This document shows, piece after piece, positions 15,528-54,380 of a DNA stretch of 64,000 nt. Position numbers and translations under genes: made by a program. Positions within the stretch are counted from its first letter, which is position 1, and every line of letters starts with the position of its first letter. The DNA is from Haliotis rufescens. Lineage: Eukaryota. The notes under the pieces were generated by a model. That model was not told where the DNA came from. It saw only the letters and a list, made by a program, of their open reading frames with translations, and made no database searches. Location: contig NW_025963857.1 of NCBI RefSeq assembly GCF_023055435.1, positions 22,072,001-22,136,000 of the forward strand, in the 5' to 3' direction.

Positions 15528-15687
15528 ATGTCTTTCACAATAATCCATTTCAATGATGTGTACAACATAGAGCCTCAGTCTGACGAGCCACTAGGGGGCG
15601 CTGCTCGTTTTGCGGGATATGTGGCCATGTGTAAAGAACAGCATCCTTTAGTCCTCTTCAGTGGTGATGCCCTCAACCCATCACTCA
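15528..15687 (+). CDS. 5'-nucleotidase coding exon 1
   Basis: MSFTIIHFNDVYNIEPQSDEPLGGAARF...FSGDALNPSL; donor A|gtgagt. Confidence 0.92.
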
Positions 15688-18600
15688 GTGAGTGACTTTA
15701 ATACATTAATTGTGTAATCATGGCACGAAACTAACCCAATGTCAGGGTTTTATCTAGATATCCTCAATTGCCTATATTCGACCTCAAGTTCAGTAAAAAT
15801 TCACAAATGGATTTGAATATTTCCCAATTCATCATGTTCATGCTGTTATAACAAATGTTTTGTTTTTGTTTGTTTGTTGTTTAACGCTGCACTCAGCAAT
15901 GTTCCAGCTATATGATGGTGGTCTGTAAATAATCGTGTCTGGACCAGACAATCCAGTGACTGACATCATGAGCATTGATCCACACAATTGGGATACGATG
16001 GCATGTCAAACAAATTAATATTCATGCTTTTACAGAAGAACTCTGGTTATGTTGCAGTGAGCATCTTCTTGAAAGGAGAGCAGATGCTGCCCGTCCTGAA
16101 TGGTGTGGGAGTCAATTGTGCTGTCTATGGCAACCATGACTTTGGTAAGGAATTTTCATTATGTTTGTTTGTAATGGTGACATGGCTCAGGTCAATTGAC
16201 AGTCATAGCAAGTTTGATGGAAGTCATTAAAATTCACCTGAACCAACTTTCTCGATATTTCCGGTATGGTGAACATGGGTAGACTCCCTTGGTCAAATCT
16301 AGCTAGTCTGCCGATCATTTTGAACTAGTGGTTTATACATATAATATAACTATATTTTTGGAGAAAACAACTGGTCCGTCTGGATTTTCATCAGTTGGGG
16401 CTAACTGACTTGTGCCTTTGTCTGTCCCTGCTGGAAAGGGGTGTCAGACCATGCAACATAGTCCTATTTGATGTCCAGATCTTATATGTGTACCCCCGAT
16501 CCCCGATTCCATGTATTGCCATGCATGAGGTCCCTTGACTGAGCTATATGGAGTTATCTCCCCTAGTTTGAAAGCTCGGTAGAACCACATATTTGTCTTT
16601 ACAAACCTTGGACTCCTGGCATCAAACTGTGTACATGGGTTTCTTATAAAACCTACCTAAGTGATATGACCAAAATACTCTAAAAGAGCTACTTTAAATC
16701 TTGAAATTAATATGTGAGTGAATTAAATGCGAAAATGCAAATGGTGCTTGCTTGCATTAATTAAACTTTGCATTTATGTCTCAAAATGTCTGTTGACAAT
16801 AAGGCCGCACTGCACATATTGGACAGTGGAAATACCAGCTTGAATATAGAAACAAACAATTATCTATTCCACATCACGGTTTATTGGGCAACAGTTACAA
16901 CAAACACTAGAAATTTTCATAATGGACATCTGGTAAGTTATCATTGCTGGGGTCAAGAATTGAGTACTCCAGCAAGTCCAGACAGATGCCACCCTTGCAA
17001 CAGTGTATTTTGGAGACTGCATCAAGGGCCGATATGACCCAGTGCGTATGAATAGGCTTCATCACACTTATCCTCACATCTACAGCCTTTGTCTTTTCAT
17101 CTGCCTTCAAGTTTGTTGGCACCTTCTCAGCTTACAGAATAAAATAAACATATAATCTATGTGTTGTTTTTAGGGAAGTACTCTACTCAGCGCCAATCAG
17201 CGGTGCTATTGTTATTTGATTGAGGTAATGCTGGATTACTGGGGCTGGAGAGAAGTCACATTAATATTTTTTGCTCGGAGCCAGTAGTCGCATTAATTTG
17301 GAGATGCATTAATTTCAAGATTTACAGTATGTGTTAAAATTTGTAACCTCGCTTTGTTAGATTTATGATATCAAATGTGATGTCAGTGAATAAATGCTTG
17401 TTGATCATGACAAGGATGTCCTTTGTTTCAGATTTTGGTGTGGACCATTTAGAGGATTTTGCTGAGCAGTCATCATTTCCATGGTTACTTAGCAATGTCA
17501 AGGACAATCTGGCAGAGGAACCACTAGCATTAGGAGAAGTAGCGCACAGCTTGGTGTGGAATGACATAAAGGTAGTGTTTACCATTTATCAGATTCTTAG
17601 CCCTCTGGATACTTTTGAAAATTGTGTATTCTACCTCATGTAAATACTTTTGGAAAAATGACATTTGGTGACAGACCTGAAATGAACTTTTGGCTTGTTT
17701 AACACCTCACTCAGCAATATTCCAGCTGTATGATGATGGTCTGTAAATATGTAAGTCTGGGCCAGACAATCCAATGATTGACATTATGAGCATTGATCCC
17801 TTTGATTTAGGATACGATAACAGACCTGGAATTATTTTTTTGGGTTGTTTAAGCCCACACAAAGCAATATTCCAGCTATATGATGGCGGTCTGTAAATAA
17901 TTTAGTCTGGACCAGACAATCCAGAGATTGACATTATGAGCATCAATCCATTCAGTTGGGCAGGCCTCAAAGTTACGACTAAAACCGATGCCAACACGAC
18001 CTAAATTTCAGTTTGTCTACTGTCTAAAATTCAGAGGTAGCCAAATGACTACCTTAAAAAATTTCTTGTGGCAACTTAATTCTATTAAGTAGACACAAAA
18101 ATAAATAACAGCTGATCTTGGAAAACACGTCTGCTTATAATTGTACTTGCAAATAATTCCTCCTAAAGTCGACAATGAACCGAAATACATAAATATTAAT
18201 GTAATAAGTACTTTATTTTAGTTGACAATGCTCATTGGATAAGCAAGGATATACCTGTATGATCTAGTAACATAAATTGCATCATTGTTCGTCATGTTTG
18301 AGTCGAAAGTAACAAAAATCAAGTACAGTTTTCACTAATATACAGTTCAAAGACTAGTGCTATAACTTGTACATATTATAATAGTTATTTGATAAAAGAT
18401 AATTTCAAATGCTTTTGGCTACCTACAATATTGGCTTGACTTCTTGATTTTTCCACTGGCTACCTGGGAAAAAATACTTGTAGCCATATGGCTACTTGGT
18501 AAAAATTTTAACTTTGAGGCCTGTTGGGATACGATGACATGCAATCAAGCAAGTCAGCAAGCCTGACAACCTGATCCATTTAATCACCTCTTTCGACAAG

Positions 18601-21600
18601 CATATTCGACCTGTGCTCTTATTCATAATCACTCGTAGCAAATGGAGGGGCGGTCGGGTAGCCTTGTGGTTAAAGCGTTCGCTCGTCACGCCGAAGACCC
18701 GGGTTGGGTACAAGAATCCTGACATGGGTACAATGTGTAAAGCCCATTTCTGGTGTTCCCCGCCATGATATTGCTGGAATATTGCTAAAAGCAACGTAAA
18801 ACCAAACTCACTCACTCACTCACTCACTGTAGCAAATGGCTGCAAGATTGTTGATGTGATGTCAAGCAATAATCACTCGCTCACTTACTCGGAATACACA
18901 CAGGTTCTCGACTTAGCTACACAAATGGCAGTGTAGAGCATATGTTCATTTAACCTACCCAGCTCCTTCTACACTAAGCATGTTTAGTGCTCTAAAAGCG
19001 AGGGGCCTATGACTTAATGTTACTTGGGCGGTCGGGTAGCCTAGTGGTTAAAGCGTTTGCTCGTCACGCCGAAGACCCGGGTTCGATTCCCGACATGGGT
19101 ACAATGTGTGAAGCCCATTTCTGGTGTCCCCCGTCGTGATATTGCTGGAATATTGCTAAAAGCGGCGCAAAACCACACTCACTCACTCACCTTAATGTTA
19201 CTTAAACACTTGTATCACTTTAAACACTGATTACATTATTTCTATTTTGATAGTTGATTATTGGCTGATGTAAGGATAAGATATATGTTTATCCATACAT
19301 CGTATCCTTGCTTAGAACTCTCAACTTCTACATGCCTCTCAAACAAGACATTTTCTGATGATTATAAAGGGACATAACTCTGACCTGTTCCAGATTGGCT
19401 TTGTTGGTTTGGTGGAGGAGGAGTGGATAGAGACACTGGCGACCCTTGACCCCGAGGATGTCACATACCTAGACTTTGTCACCGAGGGTCAGAGACTCGC
19501 CAGCCTCCTAAAGAAAGAGGTGGGTGGGGGTCACAGAACATTCATCTTCCTTGGAAAACCGACCATCAACCTAAATATTAACTATCGAGTCTCATTAAGA
19601 ATAGATCTTTTATGCCAATACCATACCTCCCTGAATGTGGTGGCACGTGGTACTGTGCACAGTGCACAGGTCACAAATCAGGTGAAGTAAAGCAAGGTCA
19701 GTCGCGGAGAGCCCTTGGATGGGTGACCAAGCTTGGCTCCTGAGAGTTTTTACTATTTTAGGGCTTTGGTCCCCTCCCACACTGAAGCACATGTAACACA
19801 TGTGGCCTCTCCTTGGGCAAGGGACTTTGTTCGAAAATGTGCCTCTGTTCACCCAGCCATGAATGGGTACCCGGTAGGATGAGATGACAATGTGGTTGTT
19901 AACCTAACCTTACAGGCAGCTTGGGTTGTATACTCCCCATGGAGCTGAGAATGATTGTTGAGTGCAAACTGATCCAGTGACCGGGGTAATAATAACACTT
20001 TGAGCATGGTCCTGAGTGGTGTTGAAATACTAGCAATATAAAAAATAGCCTATTATGAATGAAAACACCACCTCCAGAGGACGTGGGTCAAGTGAACACT
20101 GAGCAAACTTTGACCATCCAATCAAAATACAGGATGTGTGGGTTCTTGAGGCAATCAGATGTCAACTTTCTAAAACAAGTCCGCTACATTTGTTTCCCAC
20201 CTCATTTTGAAGATTTAGATTTTAACAAAAGAAACACGCAGAACACAACTGTTCCTTCCTTCAATGGTCCTCTCTTTTGGGTGTAGATGCCTTGGTATTC
20301 AGAAACATCGGATGCAGCCTTTATTGTCTACATTTGCTGGTGACCCGTGAAGATCCGGGGTAGAGTAGGTCTGCAGCAACCCGTACTTGCGATAAAAGGC
20401 GACTATGCTTGTCGTAAGAGGCGACTAACGGGATCGTGTGCTCAGGCTCACTGACTTGGTTGATGCATGTCATCGTATCCCAATTGCGTGGATCGATGCT
20501 CATGATGTCAATCACTGGATTGTTTGGTCATGACTTGATTATTTACAGACTGCCGTCATATAGCTGGAATATTGCTGAGTTCGGCGTTAAACAACAAACA
20601 ACAAACAAACATAAGCTGGTCTGAATGCTTTGCTCACTTGCAGCAAACATTATAAGCCTTGACATTGCTTGGCTGATTAGAAAGTTCACCTGACATCTTC
20701 ATGCAGAGAGCCATCATATCGGAGTAAAAGATCTGATTTTACTGAGATTGTGACTAATCAAAAATCATTTAAAATAATTTTGAGGTCCTCCTGTCACAGG
20801 CTTTTAACTTTTCTTTTTGATGTATGACGTATGTCTCTGGGGCAGCAAGCATGTGTGATTTATTCTTTGAGATACGTCTACATTCAGGGAAAATGCTGTT
20901 TGACAGCACTGACATTATGAGAGTTCTGAATCGTTCTTAACCATGTCAGTTAGGATGGTTTCCATAACACTTTCTCAGGGCTGTATGTTGAACTATGAGA
21001 CACATCAGCCAATATTTCCAGAATGCATTTGATGGTCATTACTAGTCTCCATTACAAATAGTGGTGAGTGTATACTACTCAAAAGAAGTTCAGGATCACC
21101 TGATTCTTTCTATTTACTATAGTTAATCTCTCATGTCATGACAGATTAACTTCACCATTATGAAAGAATCGGGTGATCCTTAACTTCTTTTGAGTAGTAT
21201 ATGATAGCTTCTTCATATTAACTGTAAGTCATGTTAGAGCTTGCCAAAGATTATTTTATTGCGAGCGTAATCAAAGTAAACGTCAAATTGTGACAATGTC
21301 TAAGAATATTTTACATATTATTATTTGTTGTGTTATTTGTCTGTGAATCACTTTTCCAGCAAGGCTGTGACATGGTAATAGCACTGACCCACATGCGATG
21401 GCCAAATGACCGCCGGCTGGCAGAAAGTGTTCCAGATATAGACATCATCCTGGGAGGCCATGACCACGACTATGGAGTAGAGATGGTAAACACACTGCAT
21501 TGCTGAATATCCCTGGGGAGATCATGTGAGGATAGACCATCTCCATGGCCTAGTGGCCGGAGAGTGGAAGGTCCGGGGTTCGATCCCTGTACGCATCACG

Positions 21601-24123
21601 GTTACCAAAAGACGTTAAAAAATGGTTCTTGTTGTTACCCTGTCTGGTTCTCAGGATTTAGGAGCTAAAACAAGGACTGGTCGCCTTGGAGTCAGTAATA
21701 TGGTATTGCTCCCAGACCTGGCGGGTGGCTGGATGCGTGGAAGCTATGCCCAATTTTTTAAAAGTACTGATTTAATTTCGAAATTTTAATTATTGAACAA
21801 TGGGATGGTGTGAATGTTGTCCAAACTGCACGAAATTGCTTAAAATGCAATCAAATGTTTAATGTCTGGCATGCCCCCAGACCCCCCTACAGTTTTCCTC
21901 TTCTTTTTTTTAAAAGCTGCTTACATCCCTGCAGTTAACTGAACTCTCATGCCTTCGGGAAGATGTACACTATTGCTTGTTTGATTGTGTGACGTTCTTC
22001 CCCTATGAGGTGGGACGTTACTCATGGACCTGTGAAGATCCGGGTAGGGAATAGGTCTTCAGCAACTCATGCTTGCCGTAAAGAGGTGACTATGCTTGTC
22101 GTATGTGATGAAATATATAAATATACAGAAAAATCTTTGTCAGGAATTTTTTCTATCATGCTAGTTATAGCAGGGCGTGGAGTCATCCCACAGAAGACAT
22201 CCTTACCTTGTCAGCTTGCTGACGGGGTTAACCTCTTTGGTCATGTGGACAAGGTGTCCGACCTCGGATCAGAAGGTCTGTGTTTCGAATCCTATCACGG
22301 GACTCGGAAATTTTATGGCCGCTACATTGGCGCCCAACGTGGGGCTGAGCACGTTCATATTAAATTTGAGCAAAATAAGCCTGGGGTTAACCTCTTTGGT
22401 CATGTGAACAGATCAGATGAGAAGGTCCTTGGTTCGAATGCCATCACGGGACTCGGAAATTTTATGGCCGCTACACTAGCATGCAACACTCTCTGTTGTA
22501 CAGGTGAACAACACGTACATTGTGAAGAGTGGTACTGACTTCCGGAATCTCAGCAACATCAAGGTGACGAGGACAGGAGATGGGTGGGAGTTCGACATCC
22601 AGAGAGTGGATCTAGACTCTAGTATACCTGAAGATCCCCTCATGAAGGAGATTGTGGATAGTAAACTTGGTGAGTTGATAGTCGGATGAGAGTTTGAGAC
22701 ATCCAGAGAATTTATGGATGAACAACTTCTTAATTACAATTAAGAGCAATGTTTCGGTGTAGGTTCTAACACCGTCATTCAGCAAGTGATATACAGAGTG
22801 TAGTAAGCAAGTATATATACAAGTAGGAGGCAATGTTTACAGTAGAGTAGATATTGTGATACTGGAGTAGAGAAGCCTGTTATGTACACACAAGGGTAGT
22901 GATGACAATCATCGGTGAAGTCAGTGACATAAACAAAGGATGAAGCCAGTAATAAGCTGCTGCTTATATTACTGGCTTCATCCTACATTCGGACTACTTC
23001 CACATTCCTGTTGAAACCCCTGGGAATTCCCTTGCATGAATACATACAAAAGCATTGTTTCTGATCATTTAGACCCTATAATCTTGAATTCAGCTTACAT
23101 TGAGAAATGTCAGAGAGTTTGACTGCGTGACTATTTACCAATATCCTCGCTACGACCCATAGTGAACAAAACATAGAAATGCACATCCACTATTTTAGTA
23201 TTGACTCGGTCCGTGTCTAGACTGACAGTTACAGTCCACAGCAATCTATGAAATTACCTTAGTATGTATTTGTCACATCTTTATTATCACCTTTCAATGA
23301 TCGGCCAACTGATCAATGATGACTAACACATGTAACCGCCACAAGTTCATTAACAACTTCCGTAATCAATCCTGTCACGTTTATCGTGCCGGCCATATTG
23401 ACATCTTGTATTTGATGTGAATGTATTACAACTCACTGTCATTGTGACTGACTTACCTGTGTAGTTCTTAACAGACCTTTCTCACCCAAAGATGGTATTA
23501 TTTGAATGCATTTCTTGTAAACAAACTACAACAGATTTGCTTGATAAACAAGTTGAGCATACATACACTCATGGCACCTCTCTCTTTGGGGAACTATTTT
23601 ATCTCCGCGATACAGCTGGTTGTTGTATGGCTGTCAGTGTAAACAAGTCACATGTATAGATTTAGGGCGACATCCCCCGAGATATAAAAAAGTGCTATAA
23701 AAATTATAAGAATTAACTTTCATATTTGTGTGAGTTCATTGGGAGTAGGAGCCTTCATATAGTGAGGGCCACAGATTGTATGACTGTCGTCGCATGCGCC
23801 GACGTTCATACAGTGTGGCCATCAGTCTTTGAAGATTCATACTCCAAAGTGAAAGTCAATTCTTAATTAAACCTCCCGCTTTGGATGCTCTATTGAAAAT
23901 AATTCTATTGCCACTTAATCAGCCTTGTGGTTTAAGTGTTCGCTCGCCATACCTAAGATCAGGGTTTGTTTCCCACATGGGTACAATGTGTGAAGACCAT
24001 TTCTGGTGTCCCCCACCATGATATTGCTGGATTATTGCTAAAAGTGGCATCAAAACTAACTAACAAACGAACGAACGAACGAACGAACGAACGACTGACG
24101 AACGAACGAACGAACGAACGAAG

Positions 24124-24167
<44 letters not shown>

Positions 24168-27100
24168 CAACAGGTACATTTCTTTTGCATACTTTAAGTT
24201 TCTGTTTTGCTGTTTGTTTTCCAATGATTAAGAATTTGATGTATAATTTTACAAACATCTAAAATGTCAGGCTCAATTCTGAGTAAAAGAATTGTGCTGG
24301 TTTGGGGATATATATTCATTGTGGGATGTTATTTGTTGGTCTGTGCCACCAAGTAAAGCTTTTATTGCTTAACAAATGCTTAAGGAGAGATGGGGTCTCG
24401 TACTGGTGAAACTGTTGACGCATCATTGCCTCTGTTTCATCATGAGTTTCCCTTACTGTGACGTGGCTTGAATACTGTTAAAAATGTTGAAGGACCATAC
24501 TCACTCACTGTTACCATTTCTTCAGAGGCTGTGGGGTCCAGGATGGATGAGGAGCTGGGGGAGATGGCTGTGGAGATGGATGGCCGATTCCAGAATATAC
24601 GTACCCAGGAGACTAATCTAGGTGAGTAGAGTTATCTCCTCTTATTATTACAGGATAGTTTGACTGATAGATGTCTATCACTGTACTTTGTTCAAGATAC
24701 ACTGCTTTTGTGTATGATGTTCCTCTTATTTTCTGTCTTCCAAGGCAACCGTGTCCACTAGCCTATATCAAAGCCTAGTTTCTACCCTTGCCACAACAGG
24801 ATAGTTTGACTGTTAGATGTCTATCACTGTACTTTGTTCAAGATACACTGCTTTTGTGTATGATGTTCCTCTTATTTTCTGTCTTCCGAGGCAAGCGTGT
24901 CCACTAGCTTATATCAAAGTCTAGTTTCTACCCTTGCCACACCAAGGCCACTTTTCTTGGCTCGACCCTGGAACCACCTTGCTTAGTTCACGAGTTGAGC
25001 CCTTTGTAATGAAAACGCGATATCCAATCAGATTGCTGTTCTTATCTCGTATAGCTTCACAAAAACATAGGCAATCGTTGGGGGTTTAAAAGATGAAAAA
25101 GACATATTCCAGTAGAAAGTCACTTTCATACGAAGGTGTACCAGTCGTGGATGTTGATTTTGTGAAACATTCTCTGATTGGACTATGGATATGTGCGATA
25201 GTCCAATCATATTTAGCACAGGAAAGTGGGCTTGATGTGGCAAGGGTGGAAACAAGACTTTGATAAAAAGGCTAGTGGATGCTCTTGCCTCAGGAAGATG
25301 CTTATTTTCAGCTACGATCACTTTGTGAAATAGGGACAAGTGTATCCTTGGTATCCAAATGTTCTATCATCTACAAACTTGATGTTATGAGTAGCATACT
25401 CGTACCTGTGATGATTCCAGGTTAGAATTGGTCCTCGGTAACCCATGCTTGTTGTAAGAGGCGACTAATGGTATCGTGTGGTCAGGCTCGCTGGCTTGGT
25501 TGATGCATGTCATTTATCCCAATTGTGTAGATTGATGCTCATGATGTCAGTCACTGGATTGTCTGGGCCATGATTATTTACTGACCCCCACCATGTAGCT
25601 GGAATAGTGCGGCGCTAAACAACAAACAACAAACAAAAGAAAACTAAGAGCAGCAGAGAAATGAACTTTTAATCACAGACTTTTCAGTATGTCATATTTC
25701 AGTTCACAAAATAGTAGGTTGAAATTGACTATGTCCTCTTTTATGTGTAGTATATGCCAGTAGTATGCTTATTCTGTTTATTTGTTTCCCAGCACAACAC
25801 ATTTTTGGGGACACTCAATAAAGTGGTATGATTTTGTATGTTTCTGCACATTTATTGCTAAACACTTGTGCAAGGAGATATTTTTGGTCACTGTCTGTTT
25901 TATGTCTAACAATTGTTTGCAGGGTAGTTTTTGATGTAGAATTTTGAAATGTTGTGATTAACTAACAGCACCTTTGACAGTTTGACCTTTTTGAGTGGCT
26001 GCTTGTGTCAGCTGTCACACTGTCACACTGTCCAGCAGTGAAATTTAATGAAAATAGAAAATCATACCAAATAATTAAAACTAGGAAAGAATGCTGTGGT
26101 GTATGGGTTACTGTGTACACCCAAAAAATGTTTTCAGTTCCCTTGGCGATAGTGGTGTTTGTACTTAATAGACCTGTGAAGATCCGGGGTAGAATAGGTC
26201 TTCAGCAACTCATGCTTGCCGTAAATGGCCACTAGGCTTGTCGTAAGAGGCGACTAACAGGATCAGGTGGTCAGCCTTGCTGACTTGGTTAATGCATGTC
26301 ATCGTATCCCAATTGCGTAGATCCATGCTCATGTTGTCAATCACTAGATTGTCTGGTCCATATTCAATAATTTACATACCGCCGTCATACAGATGGAATA
26401 TTTCTGAGTGTGGCGTTAAACAATAAACAAACACATGGTTTCATGCTATATTCACACCACATAGTCTCTTTTGTTATTTAACACTGCATGTTGCCAAGTG
26501 CAGCGTTAAACAACAAGCACACAATAAAATAACCCCTGTACCATACAGTGTGCTGTTTGCCGGTAATTACCCAGAGCTCCAGATAAGCTTTTGGTGTTGT
26601 GGGTATTTTACCCATGCATTTTAAAATCATTGGGTATCAGTAATTCTATCTACATATTCAAATTTCTGTTACCCACTAGTTTTTACACATGTGAGTATTT
26701 AAGTTAAATATTCAAAAACACTATTCATCTAGTCCCCGCAAACTGGAGTCGTGTGGGTTCGAGAGCTTTATAGGACTCAAAAATACCATGATACTTCCAC
26801 AAGAAAGAGTGATGGCAAATGATCATGATGTAACTGTCATCGTGGAGTTAAGCAAGGTTGACGGAATGCCCGTTTATAATTTCAAAATAAGTTGCTGATT
26901 TGCTAATCGAATACGCAGGGTTACTTCACAATATTTTGATGATACGCACAAATTTTATTTTTGTAGCATATCTGTAATGTTCGTTGCGTATTTGATACGC
27001 TTGGATGACATTTTACTGCGTATTTCTGCATTTCTGATGCGTATTTTACGCAGATACGCAGCTTATCTTGAGCTCTGAATTACCAGTTTTTTACCGGTAA

Positions 27101-30100
27101 AATAAGGCTAGGACCGGTAATTCATGTGACTTTCAGTCCCTGTGGATCAGCAAATAAAGTACCCTATTTATCTTAGTTGTTGAACAAAACATTGGCGATA
27201 TTTTAAGTATATTTTTCAAACAAAGTCAGCTGGTATATTACCATGATGGTTTCCCCTTGTCTATTTGTAGTGCAAGGAAATAACCTTTTCGCTTTGCTTC
27301 GAGGTTAAATATATATTTGTAGTGACTTAGTCTCGAAATATCAATATTTTGTTTTTAGAAAATTGTGACTGAACTGTAGATTGTAGATCTAGCTAAGTTA
27401 CTTCAGAGATGATGTCATTGCATTGAATATGATATTGAAAGACTTAAAAACAGGTAATTTTCACATTTTAAAGTTGGGACTTACAAAAATTAGGGGGAAC
27501 TGGTAACGTTTAGAGTTGCCAGTCCACCAGGACTGGCAGTTTTAAAAGCCAGTGGGAACACTGACCATAGTAACTTCTATAAACTCTCTTGTAAGATTTT
27601 CCGTCTGTTAAAATTATGATCTACAGTATTATGCATGCTTTCATCACAGTCAGCTGATAGCACTCCCTAACTCACCAATTTGTCGGCCCTCTTGTTTAGG
27701 TCAGCCTCCTATATCAGGCTGACATGACATACAATGACAACCCAACTCACTCACTCACTCATTCAAATCCCCAACTCACCCTGATGATAAATAATATTAC
27801 CTTAGTTTGTTAGTTTCACCATTTAGTTGACATGCTGTGATATAACTGAATATGTTGGTCAAAGTGGCAATGAACCCAACTCACTCACTCACTCACTACT
27901 TAATTCTGCATGCAAACCTTATAGGATGAAGAGAAACCTATGCTTTGATAGGCAGAGTTAGCAAGAGATCTCATACTTTGTTCATTATTGTATGCCTAAT
28001 AACCCCTTTCATATGACTTTCATATATACATGAATGATCCTTATGAATCCTCTACCTCTATTACATCATTGCCATAAATTCTGTATTTTGGCTGAAACCA
28101 CACAATAACTTTATCTTCACATTTTCCACAGAAGTCCTTTTCAATGTCAACTACAAACAACAAGTTGTTCCTGCAATAACTGCAGTAGCCTGACAACTCT
28201 TCCGTGCGCAAAGGCTGGAAAAACCTCACTTCTTTCCTGTGTGCGCTAGAGACAACGCCTTTGGTTTAGCTTACCCTAGCACTTGGTTATGTAGCCACAC
28301 TCTTTAACTAGTATCCCATCGGTACTTAGTTTAAGCGTTACAAGAAAGATTTGTATAGGCAAATTACTAGCTGGTTACATGAGTATTTTCTGCGGTTGGT
28401 TTTTGTGTTATGGCATCGTCTGTCATTGGGGTCCCACATAATTTCTGCTGGGAATTGCAGAGTAAGTGCTGAGGAGGAGCTTTGCACTCATCTCTCCAAG
28501 ACAGCTTTTTCAAAGGTGGATGACTCTTTCACTGAAGTCACGCGTAAGGGGGCTGCTAAGAAGAAAGTCCTTGCCTGATGGATCCCAAGACCATGGCATC
28601 TATCACAACACCTACTAACTCCTCAGCCAGACCCAGCTTCTGGTTTTTCAATCAGCACGTTGGAGAAGCTTTGTGCACAGCAGAAGCCATCCATTGAAGT
28701 CTTCCTTGCCTCCCGTCTATCAGCATAATCATCGGAGGTTGACAAGTTAAAGAAGGCTCAGTCCTTACAGCCTCAAAAGAATCCCCTGGCCAATAGGCTG
28801 CATGGGGGTATGTTTCTAGTTGAGCCCCGACTATCTTCGTCTGCCAGTGCCTTGGTTGCAGGACTTCCGGACAAGCAGCTAGGTAGTGGCGACCATGCCT
28901 TACCCACCGTGACAACCGTCCGTGCCGGTCCCTCCACGGTCCACACCGGTCCCTCCACGGTCCATCTGGATATCCTGTTAGACCTACAGAGAACTGAAGT
29001 TCAACATAAGGGTATGGGTTAATCTAAGGTCCCGTATGGCTCCCACATGGACCACGTTGACCACACAGACTACCAGTCTAATACTAATATGAAACTCATC
29101 ATCACTGCAAGTTGATGCCCATACGCACTGATCAGGCTGGACTTTTTTACAGTCTACTCGACATGGTTGTTTCGTATATAGGAGGATTTACTGACAACAC
29201 AAATCTGGATTCTTCCCAGCTCCTCGCGTTACAGCGCTAGCAGCTCCTTGCACAGATCGGGTCGTTGTCTCCTAAACGGTCTCACGACTCCTCCAGGGAT
29301 TCCACCTTCCTCAAACAGGCTTAGAAGAAGTTCATACTATCAAGGAAGGAGTGCTTTCCGACCTCTCGTCGCTACGATCGTTCCCAGGCACCTTCTGAGG
29401 TTTTTTGTCCCTCAGACCCAGTACTCATCCCTCTCCACCTCCGTCATGATCTGTCCTGGTGGACTCTTTGTGACCTTGTCTGGGATTCTCACCAGATGCC
29501 TATTTTGTAATTCCTATTCTTTGATTGACATTGTTATATACTTGTTACAACTGCGTGAAGATCCGGGGTAGAATAGGTCTTCATCAACCCATGCTTGCCA
29601 TAAAAGGCACTGGATTGTCTGGTCCATACTCGATTATTTATGCTGAGTGCGGCGTTAAACAAAAAAACAAAAAAAGCAAAACAAAAATCCTCTAGTGGTT
29701 TGATGTTTTGGTGAGGATTGCACACTGAAGAGCTGTCAGGCTACTGGTGCTATCCCGGGAACAACTAGTTTGTAGTTGTAGTTGACAGTGAGGTGAGGTG
29801 AAATGGGGTGTAACATCGCGTCAAAGATTATTGCACATATATAGTGACTTGCATGCATTGGCTGCTTGTACTAGTCCGGACTGATGCCGATTTATAGTGC
29901 TAGCCCACTGAGATACCATGAATAAACCACTCAGACACTGACTGACAGACTTATACTGACTCTGAGCCTACCAGTCCTTGTTTTAGTCCCTTAATGCCGA
30001 GCCCCAGACAGGGTAACAAAAGTGCCATCTTTTAACTTCTTTTAGTATGACCCGGCTGGGGATTGAACCCCGGACCTTCCGCTCTCTGGGCGGACCACTA

Positions 30101-33100
30101 GACCACGGAGGAGGACTTCTGTTTAAAATCTGAAGATTTAGTTATAGTGTGGTTGCAACCAAAATACAGGATTTATGGCAATGATGTAATAGAGGTAGAA
30201 TTCTCAGAATTATTACCAATGATAACTATTGAGTTGATGTTGCTGTACTATTACTTTTCTAAGGCCCAGTGAAGAGGCGACTTAGGGATGAGGCAGTCAG
30301 ACTCGCTGACTTGGTTGATGCATGTCATCGTATCCCACTTGCATAGATCGATGCTCATGATGTCAATCACTAGATTGGTTGATCCAGAATCAATTATTTA
30401 CATGCCACTGTCATATATCTGCAATATTGCTGAGTGCCGGGTTAAAAACAATAAACAAACTTTGCTCAGGGAGAGCTTTTGGGGAGAAGCAATTTGTTAA
30501 AAATATTAATGGGTAACAACTTGGTTTCTATGGCAATGGGTGACCTTCAGTTGTGATGTCACATCAGTTCTCACACTATCAGTCACTGGTTTGTTTTGAG
30601 CACTCCGTAATATCCTCACTCATTCAATGTTCTCACGGTACTAAAATTGTCTATACTTTTGCTGTCATAGTTGCATGTGTGCAGAGGTAAAACTGCAAGG
30701 AGACGTAGAAACATAATATGAATTACAATATGCTGGAGTCAAAGGTTTAGTGGTTTTTTTAAAATCCTCAGTATTTATACATTATGTGTTTGTGTAAATA
30801 TCAGTGTTGACAGCAATTTTTGTTGTGGCTGTCTTTGTTGACACTTAACACTGTTGCCTACATATCCAGGTGAGCTACAGTGTTGTGGCACTATTTTTAA
30901 AAGATCAAATTATATTTGTAAAGATAAAATATATGTTAAAACACTGTTCAAAGAAGGGACATACAATTGTTTGTAAATGATTATCTTAAATGTACATGAT
31001 AATGTTTGTTTTGATGTAGGTAATTTTGTGATGGACATCATGCTGACAGCAACCAAGGCTGAAATAGCACTGCTCAACTCAGGGACTTTCAGATCTGACA
31101 AAATACATCCAAAAGGAGTCTTCAAAATCAGGGATCTTCTCACCATATTGCCTCTCGTTGATCCGCTGGTGGTTCTTAAGGTCACAGGTGGGTGTGGAGA
31201 TTACTAGCAACAAGTGTATTGGGACACTAGCATTGGTAACTGTATTTCTGTGCTGCTCCCAATAAAGGATTGTGATGATCAAAATAATTATAGACCTGTG
31301 AAGATCTGGGGTAGAATGGGTCTTCAGCAAATGGTACTTGCCGTAAAAGGCGACTATGCTTGTCATAAGAGGCAACTAACGGGATTGGGTGGTCAGACTC
31401 GCTGACTTGGTTGATGCATGTCATTGAATCCCAATTGAGTGGATTGATGCTCACGATGTCAATCACTGGATTTTCTGGTCCAGACTTGATTACATACAAA
31501 CCGCTGTCTTATAGCTGAAATATTGCTGAGTGTGGCGTTAAACAACAAACAAACAAAATGATTATAGGCAGCAGCACAGAGATACGGTTACCGCAACTAT
31601 TGGTGCACAAGCCTATTAGAAGGGATAGGTAAAGAAGACCAAGCACATCATCACTTGGTCATTATGTACAGTGGGTGACATTAGTGCCAGGCCAGTAGCC
31701 AATCTATGTAATTTGAGTCAGCTTCTGTTAGAAGTGACAATTTTTCAGATTACTCTCACTTTACTTTCCATAAATGGTCACAATAAATAAGCACATTTAT
31801 TCCTATGTGAGTTGGCCTGTCATTACATTCATTACGTCATTATAATTGACTAGCATTAAACAACAGTAACTCACACACACACTAAGTACATACTTCAGTG
31901 TACGGTAAATTGGTCTTTTAGGCAATTATACTCAGATTTAAAATTTTCCTTTGCCTTGATTGTTAATTGCCATTAGTAATTATCACATTAAAAGAAACAT
32001 AGAGTGAATTTTTGGCTTATCTTAAGCTGACAAAGTTGATATTTTCCTGAGTGGTGCGTCAAAGATTGAAAATGTCATGAGATGTGTTAAACATGTTATT
32101 TGACACGAAAAGACAGATTTTTATTTATTATGTATTTTCTTACACAACCGTCTCGGAAAACAAAAGTTTCATAGTGGCAAACTGAAAGAAGTTATGGCAC
32201 TAAGTTGAGTGAAATAGTGGTTTTATATTTGATATAAAATAGTATTTGATCACTAAGTACATGGTAACTATTTATATATTTTCTATATAACCTTCTCCAC
32301 CTTTCCCAGGATCCCAGCTCCATCAAGCTCTAGAGAACGGGGTGTCCAAGTACCCAAAACTGGAGGGGCGTTTCCCTCAGGTGTCAGGGATGGTGTTTGG
32401 ATTTGACCCCAGCAAACCTCCAGGGGAACGTGTGGACTCCCGCTTGGTGAAGGTACAAGGTGGATACCTTGAGCTGGACAGGGTAAGGAACTTGTGGCCA
32501 TGTTATCTGTCAAACCTCCAGGGGAACATGTAGACTCCAGCGTGGTGAATGTGTAGAGGGAATACCTCCAGCTGGATAAGGTAAGGAACTTGTGGCCATG
32601 TTATCTATCAAACCTCCAGGGAACGTGTAGACTCCAGCGTAGTGAATGTGCAGAGGGAATACCTCCAGCTGGATAAGGTAAGGAACTTGTGGCCATGTTA
32701 TCTGTCAAACCCCCAGGGAACGTGTAGACTCCAGGGTGGTGAATGTGTAGAGGGAATACCTCCAGCTGGATAAGGTAAGGAACCTGTGGCCATGTTATCT
32801 GTCAAACCTCCAGGGAACGTGTAGACTCCAGCGTGGTGAATGTGTAGAGGGAATTCCTCCAGCTGGATAAGGTAAGGAACCTGTGGCCATGTTATCTATC
32901 AAACCTCCAGGGAACGTGTAGACTCCAGCGTGGTGAATGTGCAGAGGGAATACCTCCAGCTGGATAAGGTAAGGAACTTGTGGCCATGTTATCTGTCAAA
33001 CCTCCAGGGAACGTGTAGACTCCAGCATGGTGAATGTGTAGAGGGAATACCTCCAGCTGGATAAGGTAAGGAACTTGTGGCCATGTTATCTATCAAACCC

Positions 33101-36100
33101 CCAGGGAACGTGTAGACTCCAGCTTGGTGAATGTGTAGAGGGAATACCTCCAGCTGGATAAGGTAAGGAACTTGTGGCCATGTTATCTGTCAAACCTCCA
33201 GGGAACGTGTAGACTCCAGCGTGGTGAATGTGCAGAGGGAATACCTCCAGCTGGATAAGGTAAGGAACTTGTGGCCATGTTATCTGTCAAACCTCCAGGG
33301 AACATGTAGACTCCAGGGTGGTGAATGTGTAGAGGGAATACCTCCAGCTGGATAAGGTAAGGAACTTGTGGCCATGTTATCTGTCAAACCTCCAGGGAAC
33401 GTGTAGACTCCAGCGTAGTGAATGTGCAGAGGGAATACCTCCAGCTGGATAAGGTAAGGAACTTGTGGCCATGTTATCTGTCAAACCTCCAGGGAACGTG
33501 TAGACTCCAGCATTGTGAATGTGTAGAGGGAATACCTCCAGCTGGATAAGGTAAGGAACTTGTGGCCATGTTATCTGTCAAACCCCCAGGGAACGTGTAG
33601 ACTCCAGCGTGGTGAATGTGTAGAGGGAATACCTCCAGCTGGATAAGGTAAGGAACTTGTGGCCATGTTATCTATCAAACCTCCAGGGAACGTGTAGACT
33701 CCAGGGTGGTGAATGTGTAGAGGGAATACCTCCAGCTGGATAAGGTAAGGAACTTGTGGCCATGTTATCTATCAAACCCCCAGGGAACGTGTAGACTCCA
33801 GGGTGGTGAATGTGTAGAGGGAATACCTCCAGCTGGATAAGGTAAGGAACCTGTGGCCATGTTATCTGTCAAACCTCCAGGAGAACGTGTAGACTAATGC
33901 CTGGTGAAGGTGCAGAGCAAATTCCTCCAGCGAGACTAAGTAGGTAACTTGTGGCAGCATTGTCAAAAGTACAGGAGAATGTGCAGACTCCCTCATTGTT
34001 AAGATGCAACAGGAATACTTGACAAGGATGTACAATAATAAAAACACTGCATTTCAATTCTTTTTTTCTTTTGTCACTCGAGTCAATATCTTATTTACAA
34101 GAGGCCTTTATTTGCTGTACTGAGTTGTGTCCTTGGCACTACCGGGAACTGACAATCTTGGCTTCAAATACAAGAACTGACTTACTCCATGTCCTAGATT
34201 TGTCAGCACCACATCCATGCTTGTGGGCTTCACCGAATTTGTAAAAATGAAAATCTGTGACGTGGCAAGGCGACAAGCTGTGATGGTATTTAACCTAACA
34301 TGCTTACTAACTATATCAGCCATATAGATAATATGTCAGTTTTATTGGTGCCATGTATTCTGTGTAATAATGAAGCTGTCTCTCCTTCAGGTGTACACTC
34401 TGTGTACCAAGGAGTACATCGCTGCTGGGAAGGATGGCTATGATGTGTTCAAGCCTTGTGAAATAGCGGTGAGATTTGTACTAATGCTCATGTACAAAGA
34501 CCCTGAAGATCCGGGGTAGAAAAGGTCTTCAGCAACCCATGCTTGACCTAAAAGGCGACTATGCTTGTCGTAAGAGGCGACTAACGGGATCGGGTGGTCA
34601 GGCTCGCTGACTTCGTTGATACATGTCATTGTATCCCATTTGCGTGGGACCCGTGAAGATCCGGGGTAGAATAGGTCTTCAGCAACCCATGCTTGCTGTA
34701 AAAGGCGACTATGCTTGTCGTAAGAGGCGACTAACGGGATCGGGTGGTCAGGCTCGCTGACTTCGTTGATGCATGTCATTGTATCCCGATTGCGTGGATC
34801 GATGCTCATGATGTCAATCACTGAAGTGTATGGCCCAGACTTGATTATTTACAGACCGCCATCAATCAGATTGAAACACACACTTTTTACATTGAAGATA
34901 AAACTTGTTCCCAATGATCACAGCTAAATCTACTCAGGAGGTTTTTTTAACCACCAGTTAATGGCCATTGTTTTTTTTTAATTAAATGTTGCATATGTAA
35001 ATTCTGTAAACAAGGGGCTCTTGTCATAATCCTAATGTTAAAAGTTAAAGATTTTGGGGCCCCTAACTTCAAATGATGGTACCCCTGGAGAAGACCTGGA
35101 GTATCCCAATGCCCAATGCCCCCCTTAATTTCAAACACTGTAAACACCATGTTCCATGTTTTGCCATATTTTAAATATTCACCTTCATTTGGCCTTAGTA
35201 CTTTAACAAAGTCCTTAAATGCTCTCAGAATGCACTCTGGGCTCTGTAAACATCTTCTCTTGAACTGGCATTCATGTTCCTTTAAATAATGACACCACTT
35301 TGTGTGAGTTGAAGTATGTACATTACTCGGACAACTTGCAGGTGTCTGCTGAACAGTGTCAGTCTCTATCGACGACCGTCAACAACCACTTTGACTCTGT
35401 GAAGATCTACAAGGGGCAGAAACCATGCAAGTCCGGACACAGACAGAGTCTCTTGTGTCTAGCTAGGTATGTACAGTTCAGATTTGTCTCATCCATGTAT
35501 TGCTGTGAGTGAGTGAGTTGGGTTTATGTTACTGTGTGTCAACTTATGTGGGAGGAAAGCCGGAAATGGTGCAGGTGTCACATGTTTACCACTTCGGTGA
35601 AACCCATGAGCATGGGTATGGTGCTGACAAACCTAGAAACATAATTGGGGTGACCGGGATTTGAACCACGATCCTAGATTTCTTAGAGATACAACTCAGC
35701 AAATTGTGGGGCCTTAGATGACTGGTTCACCTGTGCCCTTCAGAAGTTTTGTGTACTTAGACCTTATTTTAAGCACACTAGGGGTGACTGTCAAAACATT
35801 TGTACACTACAATTGAACAAGATATAACTGTTGTTACAATTGATCCAGATTTTGAAGTTACCGGTAGTTAGGCATTTCTGTTTTTATTAGTGCTATATCA
35901 AATCATATTGTGAAATCAGTGATCAAGACAATATATATATAACATTGTAAGGCAAGGGGTAGAAGGTTATTTCAATTCTGAATACATTGTAGCACTAGGA
36001 AAGACATCGTCAATACTTCACTTGTGTACTTGCGTACACATTCCTCCATCACCTCTTAATAGGACTGCTTTGCTGTGAAATCACCATTTTCAAAGAATTT

Positions 36101-38633
36101 AGCAACAGCATGGTCGAGCCAGAGGGAAGTGAGCAAGTGCTTAGATCATTTAGTGTGCAGATTACATTGCACAAAGGGTAATGTTTCTCAACTGACAGTG
36201 TGTGGTGGAGGGGTAGCCTAGTGGTTAAAGTGTTTGCTTGCCACGCCAAAGACCCGAGTTCGAATCCCCACATGGGTACAATATGTGAAGCCCATTTCTG
36301 GCATCCCCCACCGAGATGTTGCTGTAATATTATTGCGTAAAACCACACTCACTCACTCACTCACTCACTCACTCACTCACTCACTCACTCACTCACTCAC
36401 TGTCGGCAATGGTAGGGTTCACCCAATGTTGCTGGATGGGAGCAGGGCACACATCACTATTACTGTACATAGCGGCTGCATGGGTTCACAGCTGATGAAG
36501 GAAGATACTGTACACAAACGTGGGAAGTATTGACGATGGAGGAAAGATTATGTATCAGAATATTACTGTGTCCTGGGTGTTTTTAAACCTGGCTCTCGGT
36601 TAAATTCCTCTAGCAGTGACACTTTGCAACATTAGTCACTGTATAATTATTATGTCAGTGTGAGTAGGAAAACCATTCTTTCATAGACTCTCGTAATTAG
36701 AATTTATATCTTTCCAGTCTGTGCCAAACCTGAACTTGACTCTTGGCATTATGTTCAGTAGATTTCAGTGTTATCATATAGAATATTATTGGCTATACTG
36801 ACCGAACAGAAATTTAGCAGACTGGGATTTCGGACTGGTGGCTAAAGTCGCAGACTGCCTTTGTTCTCTGGGTCTGTGACATCTTTGGTGCAGAAATAAA
36901 GAGTGATTAATTGAAAGGTAGCCTACAGTCATGTAATGTTTGACTTATTTATAACATGGTACGTGTTTGTGGTGGCCAACTACAGGAAGACCTCCATGGT
37001 GAGGCAGGCCAGCATGGATCAGGTCCACAAGCCCTACCCCCTGGTGAGACAACAGAGCATCCATGAGGCAGAGGCGGAGCAGTGCTACCTGGCCCCCAAG
37101 ATAGACCACCGAATCTTCCAGTACAACGACGAGGTGAGACTGCAGGGCTAGACACCACTACAAATCCACAAGCCTGAAACTAGTGGAGATCTGAGGGACT
37201 GGCGGTTTACACTCAGGTCTAGTTGTTTCATTGGGTGGTGTTTTGCTCGCAAAATAAGTCACAATAGCAGGATATAATGAGTGCAACATTAAACAACAAT
37301 TTGTTAAAAATGTGTTGCATGGGCCTGTTCATCTGAAACAGTGGACCCGTTGGATTGATAGTGCTATTATTGACAGACACGTGCACATGCACACACATAC
37401 ACACACATACACACACATATACACTATAGTTTGGAAAACATACATAACTAGTGTGGTGCTTTTTTTGTCACTGTTTCTTTGAAATATATACTGGTACATA
37501 TATGCATATATATTTACCTTGCATTTACCAAACCTTAATATTTATAATTTTACCTTATCCTCATACTAAGTGCTTATCTCATCTCATTCTGAAAAGTTAG
37601 TGGAAACTCCTGTGCTGTGTTCTCTCACAGCCGCACCAGAAGCATGTGACCAAGCCAGAATACTCACCACTGTGAGAAATCTTGAACTGATATCCTAAGA
37701 TCTTACAGACTAGCAGATCAAAGAAAGATATTCAAAGCCTCAGTCTGGGACTTAAATATAGTCCTGAAGCATCTTACCAGTGACGCTTACCAACCTCTAG
37801 AAGAAACTGATTCGAACACCTGATACAGAAAACATTATTTCTACAGCCTTTACCCACGGCTGTCAGAATGTCAGAAATACATGCCACAGATTTCGGTCAC
37901 ACCAGATTCAACCACCGACCGAGAGTCCATGCCTCCTGTTTTACTATGTAAATTTATACTTATCCCGACTCATACGCTATAGCGCCCATCCAGCCATCCC
38001 TGTTTCCAGTATTCGTGTTTCGACCATTAAGGGTAAGCGAGAGGAGAGAGTGATGAGTATACCGGCTTGGTCACATTCCTCCGGTGCGGCTGCACTTTCT
38101 GAGGAGTGTGTTCGGGTGAGAAATATTTTCAGTTCTTGTGAACACAGCAAAGAGTGAGATGAGGTGAGATAAGCAGTGAGGATAAGTATTAATGATATAA
38201 TTACGCTGACAACGGGTGTAAATAGAGGAGTTATATCATGTATAATATATATTTCACTGGAAGAATTCATCCCCATTGTTGAAATACTGGTTGTTATACT
38301 TATTATGTGACAAGTGTCAACAGTAGTTAGAGATGTCGTTGCCACTGTGACTCTTTTACATTGTATACAATTGTTTGAGAATTATTTAGAAATTAAGTCG
38401 CAGGATTCTTTACCCCCATCTTGGGTATGAAGATTAGAAGCAGTAATGCTTTAATCTATGACATCTTCATCCACTCTTCCTGACACAGAGATGAGACGAG
38501 AGTAATTGGCCTCTTTGATACTTTTCAGAAACTGAAGCTGATGTTGGCACTGAAGCCACAGTTTAGCAGGATTCTCAGCAAAGTGTCTGAGGATGCCAGT
38601 GACAGTGTGGAGATGGCAGACGAGGACAACTGA
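15528..38633 (+). CDS. Cytosolic 5'-nucleotidase family metallophosphoesterase (CG11883/YfkN-like; metallophos plus 5'-nucleotidase C-terminal domain), 13 coding exons, 565 aa
   Basis: Exons 15528-15687, 16058-16144, 17432-17571, 19394-19519, 21360-21485, 22504-22669, 24526-24621, 31020-31187, 32310-32482, 34391-34468, 35342-35466, 36986-37133, 38529-38633 join in frame (1698 nt), all GT-AG. Motifs: IIHFNDVY, FSGDAL, GNHDFDFG, ALTH, LGGHDH, RTQETNLGN, NSGTFR, ALENGVS..EGRFPQVSG, GKDGY. No signal peptide; in-frame TGA at 15519 upstream of the ATG. Confidence 0.93.
16058..16144 (+). CDS. 5'-nucleotidase coding exon 2
   Basis: MSIFLKGEQMLPVLNGVGVNCAVYGNHDF; ttgcag acceptor, gtaagg donor. Confidence 0.92.
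17432..17571 (+). CDS. 5'-nucleotidase coding exon 3
   Basis: DFGVDHLEDFAEQSSFPWLLSNV...WNDIK; tttcag acceptor, gtagtg donor. Confidence 0.92.
17961..18523. mobile_element. hAT-like MITE splitting a family-A element
   Basis: Perfect 14-bp TIR CAGGCCTCAAAGTT; TTGGG duplicated on both sides; family-A sequence resumes after it. Confidence 0.88.
18647..18828 (+). mobile_element. Family-B tRNA-SINE
   Basis: Homologous to the 19026 copy; ctcgtagcaaatgg / ctgtagcaaatgg TSD-like flanks. Confidence 0.88.
19026..19190 (+). mobile_element. Family-B tRNA-derived SINE with (ACTC)n tail, representative
   Basis: A box TAGCCTAGTGG, GTC anticodon-like loop, B box GGTTCGATTCC. Other copies at ~7866-7940(-), 18647-18828, 23915-24165, 36207-36400, 55868-55970(-), 62151-62311(-), 62978-63147. 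Confidence 0.9.
19394..19519 (+). CDS. 5'-nucleotidase coding exon 4
   Basis: IGFVGLVEEEWIETLATL...LLKKE; ttccag acceptor, gtgggt donor. Confidence 0.92.
19614..20056 (+). mobile_element. 5S rRNA-headed SINE (SINE3) with CORE-like body and L2-like tail
   Basis: GCCAATACCATACCTCCCTGAA and GAAGTAAAGCAAGGTC..CTTGGATGGGTGACC resemble the 5S 5' end and internal control region; CTTGGGCAAG..TGCCTCTGTTCACCCAG..AATGGGTACC core; tail CTTTGAGCAT..TATAA..TATTAT. Confidence 0.72.
20342..20610 (+). mobile_element. Family-A short retroelement (about 270 bp, (CAAA)n tail), full-length representative
   Basis: About 20 copies or fragments in the window: ~507-715, 1912-2075, 4045-4275(-), 6690-7105, 10075-10335(-), 13807-13990(-), 15860-16005(-), 17693-18605(-), 22028-22102, 25405-25640, 26170-26435, 29553-29680, 30270-30460, 31292-31556, 34499-34860, 39345-39425, 52283-52540(-), 57826-57905(-), 59652-59828(-). 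Confidence 0.9.
21071..21201. mobile_element. Tc1-type palindromic MITE (TACTACTCAAAAGAAGTT termini); relatives at about 41543-41632 and 46646-46739
   Basis: About 40-bp inverted termini with TA flanks; the terminus resembles the Tc1 right end at about 55590-55611. Confidence 0.8.
21360..21485 (+). CDS. 5'-nucleotidase coding exon 5
   Basis: QGCDMVIALTHMRWPNDRRLAESVPDIDIILGGHDHDYGVEM; ttccag acceptor, gtaaac donor. Confidence 0.92.
22166..22475 (+). mobile_element. Miniature LTR retrotransposon (TRIM) with tRNA-Arg(TCG)-derived LTRs and tRNA-Lys PBS
   Basis: Direct repeats 22224-22326 and 22383-22475, both ending GCTACA. TGGCGCCCAACGTGGGGC at 22328-22345. LTR core TGGACAAGGTGTCCGACCTCGGATCAGAAGG..TTCGAATCC resembles tRNA-Arg. 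Flanks ctagt / ctagc. Confidence 0.85.
22504..22669 (+). CDS. 5'-nucleotidase coding exon 6
   Basis: VNNTYIVKSGTDFRNLS...EDPLMKEIVDSKL; tacag acceptor, gtgagt donor. Confidence 0.92.
22938..23870. mobile_element. Possible non-autonomous element with palindromic ends (Crypton-like)
   Basis: Hairpin GGATGAAGCCAGTAATA...TATTACTGGCTTCATCC at the left end and a ~165-bp imperfect palindrome TAAGAATT...AATTCTTA at 23708-23870; classification is inference. Confidence 0.4.
23915..24166 (+). mobile_element. Family-B tRNA-SINE with compound (AACG)n(GCAC)n tail
   Basis: Body homologous to 19026; the tail microsatellite has changed unit. Confidence 0.85.
24526..24621 (+). CDS. 5'-nucleotidase coding exon 7
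   Basis: EAVGSRMDEELGEMAVEMDGRFQNIRTQETNL; ttcag acceptor, gtgagt donor. Confidence 0.92.
   Translation, partial: RLWGPGWMRSWGRWLWRWMADSRIYVPRRLI
24650..24941 (+). repeat. 146-bp direct tandem duplication
   Basis: acaggatagtttgactg...ctacccttgccaca occurs twice. Confidence 0.92.
26170..26435 (+). mobile_element. Family-A short retroelement
   Basis: Full-length copy. Confidence 0.88.
26572..27078 (-). mobile_element. Same MITE family, copy 2, nested in an older CAGTG...CACTG element (about 26546-27563)
   Basis: Same TIRs; aattacc duplicated on the flanks; carries an internal ~75-bp segment absent from copy 1. Confidence 0.85.
28050..30200. repeat. Long inverted repeat: 28050-28210 versus 29718-29792 plus 30111-30200
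   Basis: The arms align as reverse complements once the SINE at 29793-30110 is removed. Confidence 0.85.
29793..30110 (-). mobile_element. Family-C tRNA-SINE with Meta-domain-like core, representative
   Basis: Minus strand has a tRNA head, then AAAGATGGCACTTTTGTTACCCTGTCTGG..GCATTAAGGG..GGACTGGT.GGCTC core. Other copies at ~4932-5207(-), 8143-8485(-), 9750-9940(-), 21540-21705(+), 46375-46505(-). Confidence 0.8.
31020..31187 (+). CDS. 5'-nucleotidase coding exon 8
   Basis: GNFVMDIMLTATKAEIALLNSGTFRSD...PLVVLKVT; tgtag acceptor, gtgggt donor. Confidence 0.92.
31292..31556 (+). mobile_element. Family-A short retroelement
   Basis: Full-length copy; aataattatag / aatgattatag TSD-like flanks. 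Confidence 0.88.
32310..32482 (+). CDS. 5'-nucleotidase coding exon 9
   Basis: GSQLHQALENGVSKYPKLEGRFPQVSG...GYLELDR; ttcccag acceptor, gtaagg donor. Confidence 0.92.
32413..33960 (+). repeat. 97-bp tandem array derived from the nucleotidase exon 9/intron junction
   Basis: GATAAG|GTAAGG recurs at 32580, 32677, 32774 ... 33841 (14 intronic copies), plus the exonic original and degenerate distal units. Confidence 0.97.
34391..34468 (+). CDS. 5'-nucleotidase coding exon 10
   Basis: VYTLCTKEYIAAGKDGYDVFKPCEIA; ccttcag acceptor, gtgaga donor. Confidence 0.92.
34499..34862 (+). mobile_element. Family-A element with a tandemly repeated 5' 149 bp
   Basis: The head occurs at 34499 and again at 34648. 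Confidence 0.88.
35342..35466 (+). CDS. 5'-nucleotidase coding exon 11
   Basis: VSAEQCQSLSTTVNNHFDSV...HRQSLLCLAR; ttgcag acceptor, gtatgt donor. Confidence 0.88.
35506..35732 (-). mobile_element. tRNA-SINE with V-domain-like motif
   Basis: Minus strand has B box GGTTCAAATCC, TCCGGCTTTCCTCCCAC and an (ACTC)n tail. Confidence 0.6.
36207..36400 (+). mobile_element. Family-B tRNA-SINE with long (ACTC)n tail
   Basis: A/B boxes and family body. Confidence 0.88.
36986..37133 (+). CDS. 5'-nucleotidase coding exon 12
   Basis: KTSMVRQASMDQ...CYLAPKIDHRIFQYNDE; tacag acceptor, gtgaga donor; phases match the neighbouring exons. Confidence 0.88.
38529..38633 (+). CDS. 5'-nucleotidase probable last coding exon
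   Basis: cttttcag|KLKLMLALKPQFSRILSKVSEDASDSVEMADEDN TGA; phase 0 fits the previous donor. Confidence 0.72.
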   Translation, partial: KLKLMLALKPQFSRILSKVSEDASDSVEMADEDN

Positions 38634-39434: not shown

Positions 39435-39628
39435 GTAAGGTGTAACTGCCCAATAGTTAAGGTACCGTAAGGTGTAACTGCCCAATAGTTAAGGTACCGT
39501 AAGGTGTAACTGCCCAATAGTTAAGGTACCGTAATGTGTAACTGCCCAATAGTTAAGGTACCATAAGGTGTAACTGCCCAATAGTTAAGGTATCGTAAGG
39601 TGTAACTGCCCAATAGTTAAGGTATCGT
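39435..39628 (+). repeat. 32-bp minisatellite, 6 copies
   Basis: Unit GTAAGGTGTAACTGCCCAATAGTTAAGGTACC, abutting a truncated family-A head. Confidence 0.95.
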
Positions 39629-54347: not shown

Positions 54348-54380
54348 GGGTTGGGGGGTTGGGGGGGGGGGGGGGGGGGG

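Follow-up and report, generated by a model that had tools for sequence, protein, structure and literature searches.

A donor-repeating minisatellite across the exon 9/intron 9 junction of an abalone 5'-nucleotidase-family gene, probably passed over in splicing

This study concerns a 64,000-nucleotide (nt) stretch of Haliotis rufescens DNA (contig NW_025963857.1, positions 22,072,001 to 22,136,000 of the forward strand; here referred to as the window, with coordinates counted from its first letter) and, within it, a tandem array that repeats the junction between exon 9 and intron 9 of a gene for a 5'-nucleotidase-family protein. Translation of the gene model is identical to the H. rufescens entry XP_046354535.2 (0 of 565 residues differ). 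Intron 9, which separates exons 9 and 10, is 1.9 kb long. The first array unit overlaps the functional exon-intron boundary, and the units behind it repeat the donor down the intron. The features on which the analysis draws are the following:

15528..38633, plus strand: host gene, 13 coding exons, encoding a 565-residue 5'-nucleotidase-family protein, from translation and the Metallophos and 5_nucleotid_C domains
31020..31187, plus strand: exon 8, its tail joined to exon 9 in three of three RNA runs
32310..32482, plus strand: exon 9, from the gene model and RNA contigs, with the authentic phase-0 donor AGG/GTAAGG at 32482/32483
34391..34468, plus strand: exon 10, with exon 9 spliced straight onto it in three of three RNA runs
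32413..32510, plus strand: unit 0, the last 70 nt of exon 9 and 28 nt of intron, with 15 differences from the core consensus in its 70 exon sites and none in its 28 intron sites
32511..33869, plus strand: core array of 14 units (the first 98 nt, the others 97 nt), each with an AAG/GTAAGG pseudo-donor (32580 + 97n)
33870..33962, plus strand: decayed edge unit 15, donor lost, exon-type AAG kept at codon 404
33963..34061, plus strand: edge unit 16, strongly decayed, boundaries approximate

Tandem Repeats Finder placed the array at 32413-33955 with a period of 97, 15.9 copies, 94% matches, and a score of 2656, by far the strongest of the 23 tandem-repeat rows in the window; the remaining 22 all lie clear of the exons of this gene. 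An initial annotation had described 14 copies of a 97-bp unit made of about 70 nt of exon 9 and about 28 nt of intron, arisen by tandem amplification of the junction. This origin was right, and the composition is borne out by Tandem Repeats Finder and by a motif count: the acceptor-9 nt-donor motif occurs in 14 exact copies, its last exon-like base falling at 32580 and recurring in 97-nt steps up to 33841, exactly where the donors had been placed, and the splice site is intact in 14 of 14 core copies. Two details needed adjustment, namely, I) the segments between the 9-nt units are 88 nt long as described, except for the first, which is 89 nt, and II) the YAG 9 nt before each donor is indeed made by the array, but its AG is already present in the exon as GAG. 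Relative to the exon, the core consensus changes the residue at seven codons, in 10 of 14 copies one codon is turned into TAG, and one base is missing in 13 of 14; the TAG at 32531-33 is, as had been read, in frame when exon 9 runs through its donor.

Interior units are homogenised and edge units diverged. Pairwise differences among the 14 core units average 3.5 nt (range 0-6), whereas differences from the core consensus number 15 in unit 0 and 28 and 55 in the 3' edge copies that start at 33870 and 33963, respectively. Within unit 0, the exon and intron parts diverge to different degrees (Fisher p = 0.005), for which the simplest reading would be that homogenisation reaches as far as the splice site while selection protects the exon. 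The array also retains E408, as do H. asinina, H. rubra, and most outgroups, whereas the exons of H. rufescens and H. cracherodii have G, so the array is older than that change. Judged by its decayed edge copies, the array is old and not a duplication caught in progress. No dispersed copy of the 97-bp unit was found within the window, the junction motif had 0 matches in JGI metagenome contigs, and a protein search with the 62-residue array frame gave no candidate. A mirtron or other structured RNA was considered and rejected: 88-, 89-, 97- and 291-nt stretches folded no better than shuffles (z = +0.5 to +1.4), and an Rfam search gave 0 matches at E <= 1.

Of 24 listed sequencing runs, 20 hold part of the stretch, from 10 studies, and four were compared over 31600-32592, i.e., the upstream intron, exon 9, and the first unit. 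These are X12, a DNA run of organism C, and X15, X17, and X19, RNA runs of organisms A, B, and D from three studies, with an RNA label guessed by the tool; the three belong to 10 runs listed as RNA or RNA?, six of those being RNA by guess. In X12, summed contig depth, which is not a copy number, reaches about 470 on the first unit versus about 32 on exon 9. This fits a multi-copy array under a second organism label and tells against the assembly artefact that the initial annotation had allowed for. Core variants at 32517, 32528, and 32541 and a one-base gap at 32521 recur in the compared runs.

Contigs of X15, X17, and X19 join the exon 8 tail to exon 9, so that these runs hold spliced RNA. 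In all three, exon 9 is followed within its contig by letters identical to 34393-34422, and exon 9 thus joins exon 10 without an insert; this is the junction from 32482 that the initial annotation had set against use of the array. None of the eight contigs from these runs shows a joint between exon 9 and an array acceptor or an exit from an array donor, and a 9-nt insert is absent from all eight in three of three runs, contigs being prone to drop rare forms. Array sequence appears in three contigs (X15, X17; depth 3.1-3.9) that keep the intron-type spacer and are therefore unspliced. At the contig level, the authentic exon 9 donor gives the main mRNA. Separately, X17 record 15 (window 32487-32589) represents a unit of organism B with a spacer two bases shorter than that of the window, and an array-type contig, X15 record 11, starts exactly at a donor GT (window 32483), which may be chance or an excised intron end; contigs cannot show starts.

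Protein records agree with this outcome. All four Haliotis RefSeq proteins are without an insert, at one protein per species, whereas the Mytilus cluster does list isoforms; exons of 9 nt can escape annotation pipelines. Among 218 homologues, 189 could be anchored across the exon 9/10 junction (29 could not), and 187 of these have the same length there.

The splice signals of the array were scored with a rough acceptor model built from the 12 acceptors of the gene and applied to them by leave-one-out, which gave real acceptors a range of 2.8-9.0. Two kinds of array product were considered, exemplified by one unit:

32960..32968, plus strand: proposed 9-nt Leu-Asp-Lys microexon, frame-preserving, with a weak acceptor, not seen in RNA contigs
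32911..32968, plus strand: 58-nt pseudo-exon with a stop codon inside, not seen in RNA contigs

On this scale, the 9-nt acceptor reaches 1.8-3.2 across 13 scored copies, 12 of which do not exceed 2.1. Against 543 decoy YAGs it stands at the 39th percentile, i.e., like a random intronic YAG. The pyrimidine share before it is 0.41, compared to 0.53-0.88 at real acceptors, and another AG lies 13 nt upstream; the weak polypyrimidine tract and the possible silence of the array had both been anticipated, and exon 9 joins exon 10 in three of three RNA runs. The best acceptor-like site of each unit lies 58 nt before the donor and scores 7.1-7.6. Inserts of 9 and 24 nt preserve the reading frame. Nine of the 97 core positions vary, none of them in the 21-nt motif, which has a chance probability of p = 0.10; an intact motif is what homogenisation produces, with no excess conservation.

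The array is most likely an intronic minisatellite that is turned over by unequal exchange and ignored by the spliceosome since the most upstream donor wins. It would have grown from a 98-bp duplication across the exon 9/intron 9 boundary, after which unequal exchange would keep the 14 interior units nearly identical and let the 3' edge copies decay. The first unit would be homogenised up to the splice site, its exon part held back by selection on the protein. The most upstream donor would be chosen as the only one with a full exon and a strong acceptor before it, leaving mRNA and protein normal. First-donor preference is the likely cause of the silence by analogy with human F7, and the array is presumably without function. 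Several points weigh against this interpretation. The pseudo-donor agrees with the consensus in 8 of 9 positions and the true donor in 7 of 9; the acceptor of the 58-nt pseudo-exon looks real (97th percentile); and human IFI6 (6-16) and CBS do use their nearest pseudo-donors (PMC1557585). The junction loop tolerates insertions, with +4 residues in one of the 189 homologues, and PDB 2z1a aligns with +2. Furthermore, the RNA data are contigs, from which rare forms are dropped, so that low-level use is compatible with them, the exon 10 side is seen via loose ends and units 2-14 via likeness to unit 1, and the acceptor model has 12 sites.

Silent donor arrays have been known as a class since the 1990s. 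The abalone array belongs to the known junction-spanning intronic minisatellites, or mirages, and shows four of the five defining features. The fifth concerns copy number that varies between individuals, on which the contigs bear only in that unit variants are shared between runs. The human cases include F7 IVS7 (37 bp x 5-9), LMNB2 (100 bp x 10-15), and PDGF intron 4 (81 bp x 16-18), with repeats that are silent in LMNB2 and PDGF, while IFI6 and CBS intron 13 use the nearest pseudo-sites (PMC1557585). Shared with the abalone are a first unit that spans the exon-intron boundary, a donor repeated down the intron, and use of the authentic donor, and LMNB2 nearly equals the abalone array in unit size and copy number. 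The abalone array differs from the human cases in that it lies in a mollusc gene and its exon unit is 21% diverged from the copies, and from F7 in particular in that 70 of 98 nt are exon-derived rather than 4 of 37; F7 also has a scanning experiment, whereas the abalone array is known from sequence and contigs. In amphioxus, 'mirages' occur in the globins BflGb6/9, Adh3, troponin C, and PGBD5, and share with the abalone the tandem copies of an exon boundary, the concerted interior, the edges left out (decayed), and normal splicing; they have been proposed as raw material for intron gain (PMC3087553, PMC3902484). The abalone has more copies than the amphioxus globin cases (14 versus 3-6), and the accessible text on amphioxus mentions no transfer between copies and the coding exon. 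In the potato RdRp gene, duplication across an exon boundary likewise supplied splice signals, but there the new intron is spliced (PMC4974935), whereas no new intron was seen in the abalone. The accessible part of PMC10078293 does not describe the junction-array architecture. A silent donor array in a mollusc would extend first-donor preference to gastropods, and junction arrays can mislead gene finders and assembly polishing.

A further reading, possible but doubtful, retains the splicing silence and adds that the array predates the basal abalone split and trades sequence with the exon tail in both directions, H. rubra having fixed array-derived codons. The step in divergence at the splice site of unit 0 (0 of 28 versus 15 of 70 differences) would fit such exchange, as would X17 record 13, which consists of a core-like unit, an intron-type spacer, and an exon-type tail with two differences in 49 nt. 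X12 record 6 points the same way, its exon tail having two differences in 60 nt and nine unmatched letters before it. No such exon-type inner unit exists in the array of the window, which suggests a renewed copying of the exon tail into the array in those lineages; this unit rests, however, on two short contigs.

For transfer in the other direction, five of the 12 H. rubra-specific changes in the first 550 residues fall in residues 392-414, four of them in a row. With weights for how variable each site is among 23 invertebrate orthologs (most of them from molluscs), this clustering has p = 0.0001 for that window of residues, 0.012 for any 23-residue window, and 0.0002 for the run of four; of the 14 changes specific to H. 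asinina, two lie in the 23 repeat-covered residues. V402 and N404 of H. rubra both equal the array core and occur in none of 167 unique non-Haliotis homologues. Against a transfer, H401 and M403 differ from the array consensus, K414 is common in outgroups, and at two positions where the array has R and Q, H. rubra retains G407 and carries D411, so that the tract would be short. In addition, the match was noticed after the fact and from protein alone, and polishing of the H. rubra assembly, done with short reads and the programs Racon and Pilon (PMC6774278), could write array bases into the exon. For V402 and N404, convergence comes close to an even chance, a polishing or assembly artefact is a tentative alternative, and real conversion is rather unlikely; such an artefact would also mean that the array is ancient. 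H. rubra and H. asinina represent the other main abalone lineage (PMC12627906), and divergence has been put at 39.9 million years for H. iris and H. rufescens, with over 84.9 million years used for H. iris and H. rubra (PMC13544226); given shared descent, the array would thus be tens of millions of years old. It is conceivable, though on balance improbable, that most lineages clear their exon of array-type changes and that the array is a store of pseudo-exon tails, acting as a gene-conversion donor that rewrites the protein. If the exchange is true, supposedly harmless repeats are a local source of clustered amino-acid change, and if the H. rubra residues are a polishing error, the locus is a clear artefact mimicking accelerated evolution. 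A literature search in which subscription journals were largely missing brought up no paper about this locus and none about a junction minisatellite passing sequence to its exon, which is weak evidence of absence.

As a separate observation, the exon contig and the contig of the exon-type inner unit stop together at 32472 in both X12 and X17, and the following contig has its start at 32443; this implies a difference between the exon and inner-unit contigs at 32442, the middle base of the Arg-401 CGC codon in the window, a residue that is His in H. rubra. Splicing of the X17 exon-type inner unit itself to exon 10 was also weighed, but the idea was dropped because contig graphs cannot phase it.

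Leaving this exchange aside, silence could be incomplete: a few transcripts may use the first pseudo-donor or the 58-nt pseudo-exon, gain a stop, and undergo nonsense-mediated decay (NMD), whereby array length would slightly tune expression. Strong pseudo-donors, the 97th-percentile acceptor 58 nt upstream, and use of proximal pseudo-donors in IFI6 and CBS (PMC1557585) speak for such a leak, as do the early stops in both products; RNAs of this kind would be too rare for contigs. It is nevertheless unlikely, as no matching joint or loose end occurs among the eight contigs and the F7, LMNB2, PDGF, and amphioxus cases are silent. If the NMD dial suggested by the initial annotation exists, the acceptor 58 nt before each donor, a site absent from that annotation, is its likelier route.

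Far less probable is a regulated (Leu-Asp-Lys)n microexon ladder, perhaps restricted to nerve tissue, a variable insert of this kind having been among the initial proposals. As in SRRM3/4 (eMIC) neural microexons, the 9-nt unit preserves the frame and has a strong donor; it also has a YAG, the loop accepts insertions, and UGC lies 20 nt upstream in 4 of 14 copies. Microexons of the eMIC type measure 3-27 nt; their strong pyrimidine tract and their branch point lie at a distance from the AG, in most cases with UGC, and the sequence beside the AG is weak (bioRxiv 10.1101/2024.09.17.613571). The abalone units differ from these in lacking the upstream pyrimidine tract and set-back branch point (no match to YTNAY within 50 nt upstream of the 9-nt acceptor), in having UGC in so few copies, and in that inclusion was not seen in the eight contigs. 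The ladder is further opposed by the absence of an insert from three of three RNA runs and four of four RefSeq proteins, the low pyrimidine share, the extra AG 13 nt upstream, an acceptor no better than most decoys, and a motif without excess conservation.

Recursive splice sites have an acceptor-quality YAG directly before GT. The repeated AG/GT points would hardly qualify as such sites, or as borders of introns being born between units, both once proposed, for although AG/GT recurs in every unit and one X15 contig starts at a donor GT (contigs cannot show RNA starts), the AAG scores 0.3 as an acceptor in 13 copies and 1.4 in one, the array contigs are unspliced with no unit spliced out in those seen, the array is old with decayed edge copies, and the intron is just 1.9 kb long.

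Elsewhere in the window, the minus strand carries at 8560-11935 the exons of another gene, which is arranged head-to-head to the nucleotidase gene and has a translation resembling ribosomal protein L13. An abundant dispersed repeat of about 250 bp (31293-31540, 34499-34860, 20340-20600, and elsewhere), tandemly doubled just after exon 10, presumably represents an abalone SINE-like family. A broken retroelement with frameshifts and stops (48100-51870; reverse transcriptase PF00078), presumably DIRS-like, has an inverted copy of its region 49230-49570 near 51500-51860. Downstream of it lie an intronless BTB-domain frame (53560-54290; PF00651), whose start is partly copied immediately upstream (89% over 133 nt), with a repeat of the block about 7 kb downstream at 60644-61137 (96.5% over 201 nt), and a frameshift-split remnant of a Tc1/mariner-like transposase (54330-55346; DDE_3, PF13358). 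Other minisatellites occur at 24650-24941 (146 bp x 2), 39426-39629 (32 x 6.4), 43257-43486 (33 x 7), and 57185-57650 (134 x 3.5), the first of which begins 28 nt past the exon 7 donor and does not include it.

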